Of a stretch of DNA of 11,226 nucleotides, positions 1 through 7,979 are shown in pieces. The DNA is taken from the UHGV virus genome UHGV-1656500; one strand, written 5' to 3'. Source of the stretch: a virus. Below the pieces are notes generated by a model, which was not told where the DNA came from, made no database searches, and was given only the letters and a program-made list of their open reading frames with translations. A program made the position numbers and the translations under genes. Positions within the stretch are counted from its first letter, which is position 1. The number at the start of each line of letters is the position of its first letter.

Positions 1-62
1 AGCAGGAGCAGCAGGAGCAGCAGGAGCAGCAGGAGCAGCAGGAGCAGCAGGAGCAGCAGGAG
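1..62 (+). repeat. Tandem 9-nt repeat (AGCAGCAGG), about 6-7 copies, in frame within the upstream CDS and encoding (QEQ)n
   Basis: Direct reading: agcagg followed by six perfect agcagcagg units. In the frame that ends at the TGA at 186-188 this reads QEQQEQQEQ... Confidence 0.9.
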
Positions 63-188
63 CACGGTGCTCAGTTGGTTGCTATGTTCACTGACTTCCC
101 GGCATTCCCCGGCGCGCCCACCACCGCAGATGTGCATCCTGACGAAGTGGAAAACTGGAAGGCGGCAGGCTGGCGCATAGAGGAGTGA
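1..188 (+). CDS. C-terminal fragment of an upstream phage head-region protein (5' end outside the window), with a (QEQ)n repeat
   Basis: The frame with codons at 3,6,9... is open from the window edge to TGA at 186-188. Hand translation: (QEQ)n-HGAQLVAMFTDFPAFPGAPTTADVHPDEVENWKAAGWRIEE*. The next gene starts 4 nt later. Function unknown. Confidence 0.5.
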   Translation, partial: QEQQEQQEQQEQQEQQEQQEHGAQLVAMFTDFPAFPGAPTTADVHPDEVENWKAAGWRIEE

Positions 189-191
189 TTC

Positions 192-602
192 ATGATCACC
201 TACATCACTGTTGCGGATGTCGATGCGCTTCTCGGTTCAACCTGGACGGATGAAAGCAAAAAAGCCAAATCTGTGCTGATGGCTAACACCTGGATGAATG
301 GCCTCAACCTGAAAATGCCCTGCAATAAGACCACTCACGAAGTCATCATTCCCGATGATGTGAAGCTGGCTGGGGCGTATGCGTCGCTGGCCGCAGCAAA
401 TGGCGGGCTGTATCAACAGAAAACCAGTTCTGGCGTGCTCACCAGTGAATCCGTTGATGCCGATGGCGTGAGCGTGTCGGAAAGCTACGCCGAACTGGCA
501 ACAAACAGCACATCTTTGCTGGATTCCGATCTGCAACTGGCGCTGGCGATGCTCAAGCCGTATGGCGCGAATACTTCGCAGATTCGCCTTGTCCGGGGGT
601 GA
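192..602 (+). CDS. Putative head-tail connector/adaptor protein (first of four small head-tail joining genes)
   Basis: 136-aa ORF with ATG at 192 and GGAG about 6 nt upstream. It sits between the head-gene end and the neck/tail genes. Assignment is by size and synteny only; no motif recognised. Confidence 0.5.
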   Translation: MITYITVADVDALLGSTWTDESKKAKSVLMANTWMNGLNLKMPCNKTTHEVIIPDDVKLAGAYASLAAANGGLYQQKTSSGVLTSESVDADGVSVSESYAELATNSTSLLDSDLQLALAMLKPYGANTSQIRLVRG

Positions 603-1784: not shown

Positions 1785-2705
1785 ATGTCGAGCGGCGCTA
1801 AGGTACTCTCGGCCTTTATACGGGAAACTACGGTAGGTGTAACTCCGGCAGGAGCGTGGAGTCTGATAAAGCGCTCCGCGTGGGGGGTGAAACCGACCCA
1901 AAACACAAATGACAATGACGAAATCGGTGGCACCCGCATGGCGCAGGGTATGTCGATGGGCACCGTTGATGTCGGTGGCGATGTGGCGACGAAGTTTCGC
2001 TGGGGACAGCATGATGCGTTTCTGGCGTCCTGCTTCGGTGCTGACTGGGTTGGCGATAGCCTGACGATGGGTAATGAACGTATCACGTTCTCACTCGCAA
2101 CGTATGCTTCCGATGTTGGTATCGCCTCTATCGTTCGCGGCGCGCAGGTAAGCGTGTTCCAGTTGGAGGTTCCTAACGACGGTGATGTTACCGCGACGAT
2201 CACTTTCGCCGGGCTGGGCTGGGATTCGAAAGCTGATGACACCAGTTATATCGAAGGAACACCTGCGGATAACTCTGGCGAGCTGCGTTACTCGTTCAAA
2301 GAGGTCACGGCAATCAACCTGAACGGCATCGACGGCGGTGATGGTTTCTGTATCGACACCTTCAACATCCAGTTCGACAACAACGTTCAGACCCAGCGTT
2401 GTATCGGCACCGGCTCACCATATGCCGGGGCCAATATTCCGACTACGTTCACGCCGTCAGGTTCAATCACATTATCCTGGTCTAAAGCTGCGTGGGAGGT
2501 TTGGAGCAAAACACTGACCGGGGCGACGGTGCCGTTTAGCTTCACCCTGGCGAACGACGAAGGGCAGTACACTTTCAACTTCCCGAAAGTACAGGTCGCA
2601 GGCGACTGGCCGGATGGGGGCAATACCGACATTATCCAGGTTCAACTCGATATCACTGCGGCAGACGAGTCACCGACCATTACCCGCACAGCTGCGGGCA
2701 GTTAA
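1785..2705 (+). CDS. Major tail (tube) protein
   Basis: 306 aa with a strong GGAGG RBS 8 nt upstream. Lies between the tail-terminator gene and the chaperone/tape-measure genes. Ser/Thr/Gly-rich composition is consistent with a tail tube protein. Synteny-based call. Confidence 0.6.
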   Translation: MSSGAKVLSAFIRETTVGVTPAGAWSLIKRSAWGVKPTQNTNDNDEIGGTRMAQGMSMGTVDVGGDVATKFRWGQHDAFLASCFGADWVGDSLTMGNERITFSLATYASDVGIASIVRGAQVSVFQLEVPNDGDVTATITFAGLGWDSKADDTSYIEGTPADNSGELRYSFKEVTAINLNGIDGGDGFCIDTFNIQFDNNVQTQRCIGTGSPYAGANIPTTFTPSGSITLSWSKAAWEVWSKTLTGATVPFSFTLANDEGQYTFNFPKVQVAGDWPDGGNTDIIQVQLDITAADESPTITRTAAGS

Positions 2706-3592: not shown

Positions 3593-5728
3593 ATGTCAGA
3601 ACAGACATCCCGCCTCGCTGTCATTATTGACAGCACCGGCGCAGAAAAAAATGCTGAAAGCCTGACCAGCGCCCTTCACGGGCTTACCGAGTGGGGGCAG
3701 AAAGCAGCGGCCAGCGCCGGGAAGGTAACGAAGGCGACCGAAGAAGAATCCGCTGCTTTATCGGAACTTCTGGACCGCATTGATCCGGTTAACGCGGCTC
3801 TGAATAAACTGGATAAACAACAGCAACAACTCGCGAAATTCAAGTCGAAAGGCATGCTGGACGATGAGACCTTTGATGTCTATTCGAAAAAAATCGAAGA
3901 GGCTCGTAATCGTCTCACCGGGTTTTCAGAGCAACTGAAAAATACTGGCATGTCAGCAAAGCAAACTGCTTTTGCGATGCGCATGATCCCTGCTCAGATG
4001 ACCGACATCGTCGTGGGTCTGTCTACCGGGCAAAGTCCGTTCATGGTGCTGATGCAGCAGGGCGGTCAGTTAAAAGATATGTTCGGTGGCATCGGACCTG
4101 CGATTAAAGGCGTTAGCTCCTATGTGATGGGCCTGATCAATCCTTTCACGCTGGCGGCTGCTGCGGTCGGCGTGCTGGGTGTGGCGTACTACAAAGGCAC
4201 GCAGGAACAGGACGCTTTCAATAAATCACTCATCCTGACGGGTAACCAGGTAGGGAAAACATCTGGTCAACTGGCGGACATTGCCGCGCGCGCTGGTGTA
4301 GCGGCGAACTCAACCACTGGCAAAGCGGCATCGGCGCTAAACCTACTGGTGGAATCTGGAAAGGTTGCCGGTGACTCGCTTGAGCGCGTGACCACTGCCG
4401 TTGTTAAAACGAGTGAAGCCACTGGTATTGCGACCGATAAACTGGTGGACGATTTCAACAAAATTGCCGCCGATCCGGTTGCGGCAATTACCAAACTGAA
4501 CGACCAGTACCACTTCCTTACGCTGGCAACTTACAACCAGATTAAGGCCCTCCAGGATGAAGGGAATCAGCAGGAAGCGGCGCGCGTTGCTACTGATGCT
4601 TACGCCACCACCATGCAGCAGCGTGCCGCAGATATTCAGGATAATCTCGGTTATCTCGAAAAGGCATGGAACGGACTCACCGGCGCAGCAAAAGGTGCAT
4701 GGGATGCAATGCTGGGCGTTGGGCGCGAGCAGTCTCTTGAACAACGACTGGCTGATGCGACTAAAAAGGCAAATGATGCACGCGGCAAAGCCGTGGGTAA
4801 TATTTTCGGTGTGCCAGGGTGGCAAACTGAAGCGGCAGCAGCGGCTAATTTTCTGCAAAGTGCTATCGACCTGCAAGGCGACCTTACAAAAGCTGTCGCG
4901 GCTGGCAGAGAAGAGCAGGATAAGGCAATTAAAATACAGCAGGAAGCTGATCGCGTTAACCAGCAGTTCCTGTCGAATGCTGATAAGCGAAACAAGGCGA
5001 TTCAGCAGCAGAAGAAATTCCTTGATGCCGGGGCCATCAGTGCAGATCAGTACGCGAAAAATATCGCGCGCATCAATGAAATGTACAAAGACCCTAAATC
5101 GCCAACAGCACCGAAGGGAAAAGCATATAGCGAAGATGCAGCGACACGACTGCTGGATCAGATTAACCAGCAGACATCCGCTATGCAGTCCCAGCTTGAC
5201 GCCAGCGATAAGCTCACCAGCGCCACCCAGGCGCGAGTGAAATTTGAACAGCAGATAGCTGACCTCAAATCGAAAACGCAGCTCACCGCCGATCAAAAAT
5301 CGCTTTTGTCCCGCTCTGAAGAAATTATTCAGGCCTACAAACGACAGGAGGAGTTGCAAAACTCCGTTAAAACGCTCGACGATTACCGGAAAATGCAGGA
5401 GCAGGTTAAAGCGAAGGATGAGCAGCAGAATGATTTGCTTCGCGAACGGCTTGCGCTGCTGGAAAAAGCAAAAGCCACAGGGAAGCTGGCGCCGGGGGAA
5501 TACGAGCAAACCCGATCTGATATTTACAAAAACACTCCAGCGGAGTTGCCTTCTTCAGTGAAGAGTGTGGTTGGCAACCTGTCACCGACTGGCGGCCAGT
5601 TATCCGGCACGTTCGGCGGTATGCAACAGCAGTACATTCAGCTCGATCAGGCGCAACAGCAGTTACAGACGTGGTTGCGGCATATGCCCAGGCTGCGCAA
5701 ATCACCACGGAAGGCGAAGCGCGCATGA
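3593..5728 (+). CDS. Tail tape measure protein, N-terminal ~690-aa part (frame interrupted near 5660-5675)
   Basis: ATG at 3593 with GGAG 6 nt upstream. Long Ala/Gln/Lys-rich, coiled-coil-like translation with a hydrophobic Gly-rich segment (VVGLSTGQSPFMVLMQQGG...AAAVGVLGVAYY), as is typical of tape measure proteins. The final ~20 residues of this frame (TWLRHMPRLRKSPRKAKRA) look non-native. Confidence 0.8.
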   Translation: MSEQTSRLAVIIDSTGAEKNAESLTSALHGLTEWGQKAAASAGKVTKATEEESAALSELLDRIDPVNAALNKLDKQQQQLAKFKSKGMLDDETFDVYSKKIEEARNRLTGFSEQLKNTGMSAKQTAFAMRMIPAQMTDIVVGLSTGQSPFMVLMQQGGQLKDMFGGIGPAIKGVSSYVMGLINPFTLAAAAVGVLGVAYYKGTQEQDAFNKSLILTGNQVGKTSGQLADIAARAGVAANSTTGKAASALNLLVESGKVAGDSLERVTTAVVKTSEATGIATDKLVDDFNKIAADPVAAITKLNDQYHFLTLATYNQIKALQDEGNQQEAARVATDAYATTMQQRAADIQDNLGYLEKAWNGLTGAAKGAWDAMLGVGREQSLEQRLADATKKANDARGKAVGNIFGVPGWQTEAAAAANFLQSAIDLQGDLTKAVAAGREEQDKAIKIQQEADRVNQQFLSNADKRNKAIQQQKKFLDAGAISADQYAKNIARINEMYKDPKSPTAPKGKAYSEDAATRLLDQINQQTSAMQSQLDASDKLTSATQARVKFEQQIADLKSKTQLTADQKSLLSRSEEIIQAYKRQEELQNSVKTLDDYRKMQEQVKAKDEQQNDLLRERLALLEKAKATGKLAPGEYEQTRSDIYKNTPAELPSSVKSVVGNLSPTGGQLSGTFGGMQQQYIQLDQAQQQLQTWLRHMPRLRKSPRKAKRA

Positions 5729-6459
5729 CGGCAATTCGCCAGCAGGCTGCGCAGGCCAACCAGGTAATCGAATCCCAGAAAAACGAAATCATCACCAGTG
5801 CGACGCAAACCATGATCGACAGTGGTTTGCAGATTCTGGCGACTGGTTTCGGGGAGCAATCCGGGATTTATAAAGCGGCGTTCGCTGCCAGCAAGGCATT
5901 CGCTATTGCACAGTCTCTGGTTTCGATCCAGCAGGGGATAGCAATGGCGGCGGCTAACCCGTTCCCGTACAACATCGCTGCGATGGCATCCGTTGCAGCG
6001 GCGACGGCGAGCATCGTTTCTAATATCGCAGCTGTTGCGGATGTTGGTTTTGCTGTCGGTGGTTTTACGGGCCCGGGCGGAAAATACCAGCCCGCCGGGA
6101 TAGTGCATAAAGGCGAGTATGTTTTTGACCAGGCTGCAACCAACCGGATAGGCGTCTCGAACCTTGAGGCGCTGCGCAATGGTGGTTCTCTGGATGCAAC
6201 GCTGAGCAAGCCCGGTTTCGGTACGGGGGCGCAGAACGTCAATAACAACAGTAATTCAACTGTATTCAGCCCCCAGATTCAGCAGGACTTCCATATTCAG
6301 CAGGGTGTAACGCCTGAGCAGATGGATATGTCTCTCGCCAACACCGCCAAAAAGGCGACGACGGACGCAGTTGATCAGGTGGCGAACCAGATTGTCCGGG
6401 GTAACGGGAAAGTGGGTAACGCAATGCGAGGAACGTACACCGGAAGGAGAACGACCTGA
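5671..6459 (+). CDS. Tail tape measure protein, C-terminal ~262-aa part in the -1 frame relative to the upstream part
   Basis: This frame is open from 5521 and its first start codon is GTG at 5671. The translation (VVAAYAQAAQITTEGEARMTAIRQQAAQANQ...) continues the tape-measure-like composition. The stop overlaps the next gene start (TGATG). Confidence 0.7.
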   Translation: MVAAYAQAAQITTEGEARMTAIRQQAAQANQVIESQKNEIITSATQTMIDSGLQILATGFGEQSGIYKAAFAASKAFAIAQSLVSIQQGIAMAAANPFPYNIAAMASVAAATASIVSNIAAVADVGFAVGGFTGPGGKYQPAGIVHKGEYVFDQAATNRIGVSNLEALRNGGSLDATLSKPGFGTGAQNVNNNSNSTVFSPQIQQDFHIQQGVTPEQMDMSLANTAKKATTDAVDQVANQIVRGNGKVGNAMRGTYTGRRTT

Positions 6460-7466: not shown

Positions 7467-7979
7467 GTGAAACGATTTTTGCTGGTTTCTGCCGTAATTT
7501 TACTGGCCGGATGTTCGGCTAAATACAATACGAACAATATTCAGAGCAACACTGAGCAGTTAGTCAAAGATGCTCCAGTTGCTATTGCTATGCCATCTGA
7601 TGGGGTATATGAAACCCGCACATATGCTGGCTCTGGAAATTCGACAGCGACTGCATTAAAAGCTGCTTTTTTGCGACATTCAGATAACGTAGCGATTTAC
7701 GCTGATTGTGAAGATGTTACTTGTCTGAAAAATAATCATACAATCCATCATGGATACTACGTTGTTCCTCAGATATTGCATTGGGAGGACAGGGCTACTG
7801 AGTGGTCAGGAATTCCAGATAAAATTGAAGTGAAAATTACAATTTATAATGCAGAATCCAACAATCGGATTGCCTCAACGATTATTAGCGGGAAAAGTAA
7901 GTGGGCAACATTTGGTGGTGATCATCCGCAAGACTTGTTGCCAGAGCCAGTAAACTCGTACATCTCCAGCCTGTATTGA
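7467..7979 (+). CDS. Lipoprotein encoded by an AT-rich moron; function unknown
   Basis: GTG start with AGGGA 7 nt upstream. The N-terminus MKRFLLVSAVILLAGCSA is a textbook type II signal peptide with lipobox LAGC (Cys16). GC is roughly 30-38% against roughly 55-65% in the flanking tail genes, counted by eye on a few 60-nt lines. A strong terminator follows. Confidence 0.7.
   Translation: MKRFLLVSAVILLAGCSAKYNTNNIQSNTEQLVKDAPVAIAMPSDGVYETRTYAGSGNSTATALKAAFLRHSDNVAIYADCEDVTCLKNNHTIHHGYYVVPQILHWEDRATEWSGIPDKIEVKITIYNAESNNRIASTIISGKSKWATFGGDHPQDLLPEPVNSYISSLY

Follow-up and report, generated by a model that had tools for sequence, protein, structure and literature searches.

The closest described parallel to the repeat analysed here is that of the amino-acid tandem repeats (aaTRs) of Borg elements, which are perfect in-frame nucleotide repeats, with units that are multiples of three, in low-complexity or disordered segments (Schoelmerich et al. 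2023, PMC9879509). These repeats are of recent and independent origin, and the hotspot is conserved among homologues, which fill it with different units alike in composition (PMC9879509). Perfect repeats within an ORF and different units at a hotspot were also found at the locus described here. It lies at the left end of a stretch of 11,226 nucleotides (the window, i.e. the whole of the DNA that was analysed), in a small gene whose stop is followed 3 nt further on by the start of the head-tail adaptor gene Ad1 (Table 1).

TRF detected a 9-nt period at window positions 1–64, with 7.1 copies, 100% matches and a score of 128. The original prediction, made from the letters of the window, had described a perfect in-frame 9-nt tandem repeat encoding a Gln/Glu tract about 40 residues before the C-terminus of a head-region protein. 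All parts of this description were borne out: TRF and translation agree on the repeat, its frame and its perfection, 41 residues separate the EQQ tract from the stop, and the gene sits between the coat and Ad1 genes. The unit given in the prediction, AGCAGCAGG, is a rotation of the same 9-nt unit, the codon register being GAGCAGCAG. The frame from base 3 translates as QEQQEQQEQQEQQEQQEQQE-HGAQLVAMFTDFPAFPGAPTTADVHPDEVENWKAAGWRIEE* (stop at 186–188), in which QEQQEQQEQQEQQEQQEQQE corresponds to Q(EQQ)6E; the remaining two forward frames run into stops in the window. The two-unit pattern GAGCAGCAGGAGCAGCAG was observed five times, against 0.01 expected from 200 dinucleotide-preserving shuffles. 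The HGAQ junction was also found in L005, L088, P0054, P0062, P0065, P0066, P0089 and P0091, and other alleles have GAQ, GIL or GVQ in its place, or nothing. Each GAGCAGCAG unit contains a Shine-Dalgarno-like AGGAG, resulting in seven consecutive copies approximately 125 nt upstream of the Ad1 start; this motif is not conserved in lineages with other repeat units.

Table 1 Positions of the features discussed, in the window and in related contigs
Feature	Record	Position	Strand	Description
Perfect tandem array, 5'-truncated	window	1..64	+	Unit GAGCAGCAG, TRF register AGCAGGAGC; encodes Q(EQQ)6E; left edge is the contig end
Small head-module gene, 3' part	window	3..188	+	61 codons and stop; PHROG 1514
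HGAQ junction	window	63..74	+	Joins array to conserved domain; lineage-specific
Conserved C-terminal domain	window	75..185	+	37 aa (LVAMFTDFPAFPGAPTTADVHPDEVENWKAAGWRIEE); family core; invariant and near-invariant columns
Ad1 head-tail adaptor gene	window	192..602	+	phrog_493 'head-tail adaptor Ad1', E=1e-40; weak Pfam DnaT_2 match
Tail-tube gene	window	1785-2705		306 aa
Tape-measure ORF, first part	window	3593-5728		
Frameshift in tape-measure gene	window	5676/5677		13 nt GCAGGCTCAGGAA absent
Tape-measure ORF, second part	window	5671-6459		
DUF4823 ORF	window	7467-7979		170 aa
Terminator-like hairpin and T-run	L088	3672-3689		AAGGGGCTTCGGCCCCTT followed by TTCTTTCT
Full small gene	L088	3707-3997		96 aa: MAGLTKEQRAQRAAEKLAAELSANNNS-(EQQ)9E-HGAQ-LVAMFTDFPAFPGAPTTADVHPDEVENWKAAGWRIEE
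Tail-tube gene	L090	1751-2911		386 aa, with Big_2 Ig-like domain
Tail-tube gene	L096	6585-7745		386 aa, with Big_2 Ig-like domain

The fragment of the small gene in the window matched profile phrog_1514 over positions 7–58 (E=7.4e-23) and a full-length relative matched it over positions 1–58 (E=4.8e-23); distant family members match this profile too. PHROG 1514 is annotated 'unknown function' and its profile has 58 positions, relative to which the repeat is an insertion. A profile search yielded 736 homologous proteins, all unnamed or 'hypothetical', the named sources being Klebsiella, Citrobacter, Raoultella, Escherichia, Salmonella, Pectobacterium, Kluyvera, Phytobacter and Pseudescherichia, and an exhaustive HMM search gave 460 clusters at 50% identity. 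Searches of Pfam, NCBIfam and PDB sequences with the protein and the profile returned chance-level matches only, and the literature search found nothing specific on the family, on its neighbours (DUF4055, DUF6651) or on VNTRs in phage linkers.

The family core consists of the C-terminal ~38 residues ([LV]VxMxRDxPxxPGGPTxADVHPDEVxNWxxxGW), and many members share the N-terminal motif MAGLTKEQRA or MAGISKAERERRAAE. The linker is rich in A, E, P, Q, D, S and T. Its length in the family, the distant members included, is anything from 0 to about 90 aa, so that tolerance of length is a family trait. AF2 was run on a three-unit allele with flanks identical to those of the window, using a 119-sequence alignment. 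The C-terminal domain was predicted to be compact (strand-strand-helix-strand, pLDDT about 90), and the part from the N-terminal helix through the repeat or linker had a pLDDT of 55–72; the EQQ tract was rendered as a helix at low confidence, and disorder of the linker is not established by this model. When the codons of the C-terminal domain were compared between lineages, 10–17 synonymous and 7–14 non-synonymous differences were counted, with synonymous differences at least as frequent as non-synonymous ones against six of the seven lineages compared. This is the pattern expected of a translated frame, and it indicates that the frame is translated and under purifying selection.

A segment resembling the HeH/Rho_N-type DNA-binding motif was noted among some distant family members (P0173, P0189, P0201, P0208, P0219, P0246, P0262, P0265 and P0268). 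In most of these the conserved domain is N-terminal and is followed by the HeH-like tail, whereas P0189 has the domain twice, once on either side of the HeH-like segment. Pfam HeH scored in P0189 only, below the cut-off (E=1.4e-4). Such segments hint that the family may link capsid or connector to DNA. Frameshifted or truncated C-termini were seen in P0106, P0129, P0133, P0138, P0170, P0174 and P0238, and in most of them the break falls within the C-terminal domain or where it begins; in P0174 the divergence sets in soon after the repeat. These are probably sequencing errors or decaying prophages.

Relatives were gathered by means of the neighbouring Ad1 gene and not by the repeat, so that the sample of 82 intact genes is unbiased toward repeats. 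A repeat was absent from 55 of the 82, which encode proteins of 70 aa (52 genes), 69 aa (two) or 72 aa (one). Repeat-bearing genes number 27; their products measure 70 to 133 aa, and most of these lengths were seen just once. At the DNA level all arrays start at nt 82 (codon 28), are 100% pure and extend up to 199 nt. EQQ is encoded by GAGCAGCAG (3.1, 3.6, 5.1, 8.6, 9.6, 10.7 or 22.1 copies) or by GAACAGCAG (4 to 16 copies), APQ by GCACCGCAG (8 to 14 copies), EQ by GAGCAG (5.7 to 19 copies) and QD by CAGGAC (6.8 copies). Within the sub-lineage of the window the GAGCAGCAG unit is present in 3.6, 8.6, 9.6, 10.7 and 22.1 copies, and the 4–16 copies of GAACAGCAG belong to a Klebsiella/E. coli lineage. 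Further types, namely (EPQ)n, (AST)n and polyQ as well as decayed EQL/EQK forms, occur in the larger protein set. Codon 28 is a repeat hotspot at which several different units are used. At the same place 70-aa alleles such as L003 have two imperfect units, GCACCGCAG GAACCGCAG, which are a plausible seed of the array.

Differences in copy number were found between closely related genomes. L079 and L080 have no mismatches over 6,390 aligned nt and differ solely by an 18-nt indel of two units (13 versus 11). The alleles of the small gene in L096 and L088 match that of the window exactly in everything but the array, which has 3.6 copies in L096 and 9.6 in L088. The deposited genome of Klebsiella phage 5 LV-2017 has 16 units and a RefSeq E. 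coli chromosome has nine units of the same allele. L027 and L033, with 8 and 11 APQ units, show 91 mismatches over 6,377 aligned nt. The expectation that copy number would vary between isolates is therefore confirmed by the pairs L079/L080 and L096/L088 and by a range of 3 to 22 copies, and a copy number identical in all relatives is excluded among the assemblies compared. That any such change would keep the frame, as also proposed, agrees with the C-terminal domain being in frame in all 82 locus genes. Because the arrays are pure and stand beside flanking codons with many synonymous differences between lineages, they are either young or continually homogenised.

Taken together, we consider the array to be a genuine, translated, in-frame minisatellite in a linker, in which units are gained and lost by slipped-strand events within a length-tolerant spacer (probability roughly 85%). 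Perfect 9-nt direct repeats would misalign during replication or recombination, by slipped-strand mispairing or unequal exchange, and whole units, each equal to one Glu-Gln-Gln tripeptide, would be gained or lost. The conserved C-terminal domain would stay in frame after each event. If the linker is a hydrophilic spacer that is unconstrained in sequence and tolerant of length, such changes would survive, and copy number would drift quickly between otherwise identical prophages. Misalignment fits the data because the arrays are pure while the flanks have diverged, copy number changes on otherwise identical backgrounds, repeat-free alleles are nearly fixed in length and only units of 3n nucleotides occur. 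EQQ units are acidic and APQ units neutral, and helix propensity varies among the units too; the property common to them is hydrophilic low complexity and not a specific structure. We infer the slippage mechanism, the near-neutrality of length changes and the spacer role from these patterns, the neutrality itself being an assumption.

Expansion driven by hairpins was rejected: the strands of an 86-nt array fold weakly (-9 and -13 kcal/mol) and the GAACAGCAG (GAA) version does not fold (0). As single-strand structure is negligible, hairpins are not needed. The locus offers a clean natural case of the birth and turnover of tandem repeats, with an imperfect seed and at least seven units expanded at one codon, and the array could be of use in typing these prophages at a fine scale. 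No new mechanism is revealed or required.

A counterpoint to neutrality is the repeated origin, at a single codon, of arrays built from different units; this could be a sign that longer or more acidic spacers were selected. The locus would then be subject to adaptive tuning, like a contingency locus, with spacer length under diversifying selection (for reach, charge or escape from a host factor) and the array maintained as a source of variation. At least seven repeat types (EQQ, APQ, EPQ, EQ, QD, AST and polyQ) are found at the same codon in different lineages, all of them hydrophilic; purity is perfect even in an array of 22 units, and the count differs in almost every repeat-bearing isolate. 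However, two thirds of the sampled relatives are repeat-free with a nearly fixed 70-aa protein, units that are multiples of three provide no on/off switch, and with APQ neutral and EQQ acidic no common charge has been selected. Linker length already ranges from 0 to 90 aa over the family as a whole, and the mutational explanation suffices. We therefore regard tuning as unlikely. Quite unlikely as well is a version in which the linker acts as a mutable 'ruler', slippery arrays having re-evolved at codon 28 because the length or charge of the tether that joins the N-terminal helix to the C-terminal docking domain would affect phenotype. If true, this linker might affect the efficiency of packaging or head completion, or help to evade a host defence by which the protein is sensed, and would be a contingency locus within a virion-assembly gene. 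A phase-variable locus with on/off switching was rejected, the units being 3, 6 or 9 nt and the domain in frame in 82 of 82 genes; in the frameshifted P0106 and P0133 the shift lies inside the C-terminal domain, downstream of a linker without repeat.

The window is an entire SPAdes contig (ena:ERZ1303568:NODE_1372_length_11226_cov_2.89795, 2.9x coverage) and its left edge lies in the array, as the original prediction had recognised. L089 (ERZ28599772 scaffold_955), an independent assembly, begins at the identical base, and L090–L093, with identical Ad1 protein, retain 82, 30, 7 or 0 nt of the array at the contig end. Together with the window, L089–L093 make six short-read contigs that break in or at the array. 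MEGAHIT contigs stop with 0–7 nt of it, and the 30 nt retained in a Logan contig equal k=31 minus 1. A de Bruijn assembler with k=55 that enters a period-9 loop leaves 55 + 9 nt. The k values of 55 (SPAdes) and 31 (Logan) are presumed from contig naming and general knowledge of assemblers. With a contig edge inside the array and 64 nt of it retained, equal to the 55 + 9 left by a k=55 assembler, the 7.1 copies in the window represent truncation at the limit of the assembler and not biology.

Only L088, a 239-kb contig (GCA_030333225.1), has exactly the Ad1 protein of the window and also spans the array; it differs from the window by one mismatch in 4,410 nt. Here the array measures 86 nt (9.6 copies). 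The order is coat gene, hairpin with T-run, GGAGG Shine-Dalgarno sequence, ATG, 27 codons, array and the identical 41 C-terminal residues, with the ATG 81 nt upstream of the array and in frame. Extension of the sequence upstream, which had been proposed as a check, thus yielded the full array and a 96-aa protein, and disposed of the concern that the repeat might be out of frame or non-coding. A longer array in L092 (82 nt of repeat) than in L088 was considered and rejected, as L088 has 86 nt; there is no evidence for a difference. An exact-junction search of IMG/VR gave no match.

That the repeat or its copy number was made by the assembler, and is no biological feature, is most improbable. 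The low coverage, the start of the window in the array, the retained 64 nt (k=55 plus one period) and 30 nt (k=31 minus 1) and the six broken contigs all speak for an artefact, but one that concerns solely the number of copies that the window shows, not the array itself. Sequences that read through it are KY271399 (a deposited phage genome, 16 units), the RefSeq E. coli chromosome of the complete-genome set (nine units), the 239-kb NCBI assembly contig L088 (9.6 units) and many IMG/VR prophage records, and in all of these array-spanning sequences the flanks agree and the frame is intact. What the array does do is break short-read assemblies exactly at the boundary between head genes and connector-tail genes, so that prophages are split over separate contigs and truncated ORFs are left at contig ends.

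The least probable reading, a role at the nucleic-acid level (pausing of ribosomes on internal Shine-Dalgarno-like AGGAG ahead of Ad1, RNA structure or an iteron bound by a protein), could appeal to the AGGAG in every GAGCAGCAG unit and to the position of the array, with Ad1 following closely after ~125 nt, but other lineages have GAACAGCAG, GCACCGCAG, GAGCAG, CAGGAC or no repeat and hence no conserved nucleotide motif, folding is negligible (-9 kcal/mol per 86 nt and 0 for the GAA version), and a known RNA was rejected with no match in Rfam.

In all relatives the small gene is located between a P22-type coat gene and Ad1. The coat gene lies beyond the left end of the window and was observed in L001, L002, L088, L096, HK639 and the distant L104 and L107. 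HK639, in which the small gene is gp07, and distant members on other contigs have the same order of coat gene, small gene and Ad1, in some cases with stop and start codons that abut or overlap. Downstream of Ad1 follow head-closure, neck, tail-terminator, tube, chaperone, tape-measure and J-like genes.

In L088 the coat gene is separated from the small gene by a hairpin that resembles a terminator and has a T-run (Table 1). It is shared with Klebsiella phage 5 LV-2017 (L001), and the copy in L096 has one substitution. This hairpin probably lowers downstream expression relative to the coat gene, and it argues weakly against coat-level expression and a stoichiometric decoration protein.

Three further observations concern the tail genes of the window. 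The tape-measure gene is split into two ORFs by a frameshift, at which 13 nt are absent that are present in L099 (two mismatches to the window in 3,331 nt) and nearly identical in L097 and L100; relatives have one unbroken tape-measure protein of 952–959 aa. This frameshift may be an assembly error, given the 2.9x coverage, or a real defect. The DUF4823 ORF, between the tail gene DUF1833 and a 126-aa gene, occurs in L099–L101 and not in L097 and L098, and looks like an optional cargo gene (moron). The tail-tube protein in the close relatives L090 and L096 has a Big_2 Ig-like domain and is 80 residues longer than that of the window; the adaptor gene is shared, and immediately past it the module is mosaic.

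With respect to gene position, the locus can be compared with that of lambda FI (gpFI). The lambda order is E-FI-FII and the order here is coat-X-Ad1, so that both genes occupy the same slot, from the major capsid gene to the first head-tail joining gene. The FI protein has a helical N-terminal part, an acidic flexible linker and a small C-terminal domain. A structure of it is PDB 2LSM. FI is cited as a DNA-packaging chaperone by which the complex of terminase and DNA is brought to proheads (PMC4493119, where Popovic et al. 2012 is cited). Gene position and domain layout, the latter from alignments and AF2, are alike in the small protein studied here. Homology to FI was nevertheless rejected at the levels of sequence, profile and fold: the hhalign probability was 0.7%, repeat-poor members had no match in Pfam even at E<=10, and the C-terminal domain was not found to have the 2LSM fold. 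The protein is a small two-part protein, 'in FI position, FI-like in layout'. By analogy it is tempting to speculate, with considerable doubt, that it might be an accessory of head assembly or head completion in the slot of FI. As such an accessory, its C-terminal domain would dock on the capsid or connector, and the linker would determine how far away the basic N-terminal helix makes a further contact. PHROG 1514 is in any case a very common, unstudied small protein of the head modules of Enterobacteriaceae prophages.

With respect to the repeat itself, the Borg aaTRs are a genome-wide feature of an archaeal element, whereas the array described here occupies one short gene of a temperate siphophage of Enterobacteriaceae, with G/C/A-rich units that encode EQQ or APQ. 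Bacterial contingency loci and VNTRs likewise consist of a perfect short array with a count that differs between otherwise identical genomes. However, the classical loci switch genes on and off by frameshift or promoter spacing, and here units of 3, 6 or 9 nt change linker length only. The units at this locus are perfect, head to tail and of 3n nucleotides, and their number differs between near-identical genomes, as in an in-frame VNTR. The phenomenon, an in-frame VNTR in a low-complexity linker, is therefore already known; the family that carries it is uncharacterised, and its hotspot with multiple units is a tidy example.
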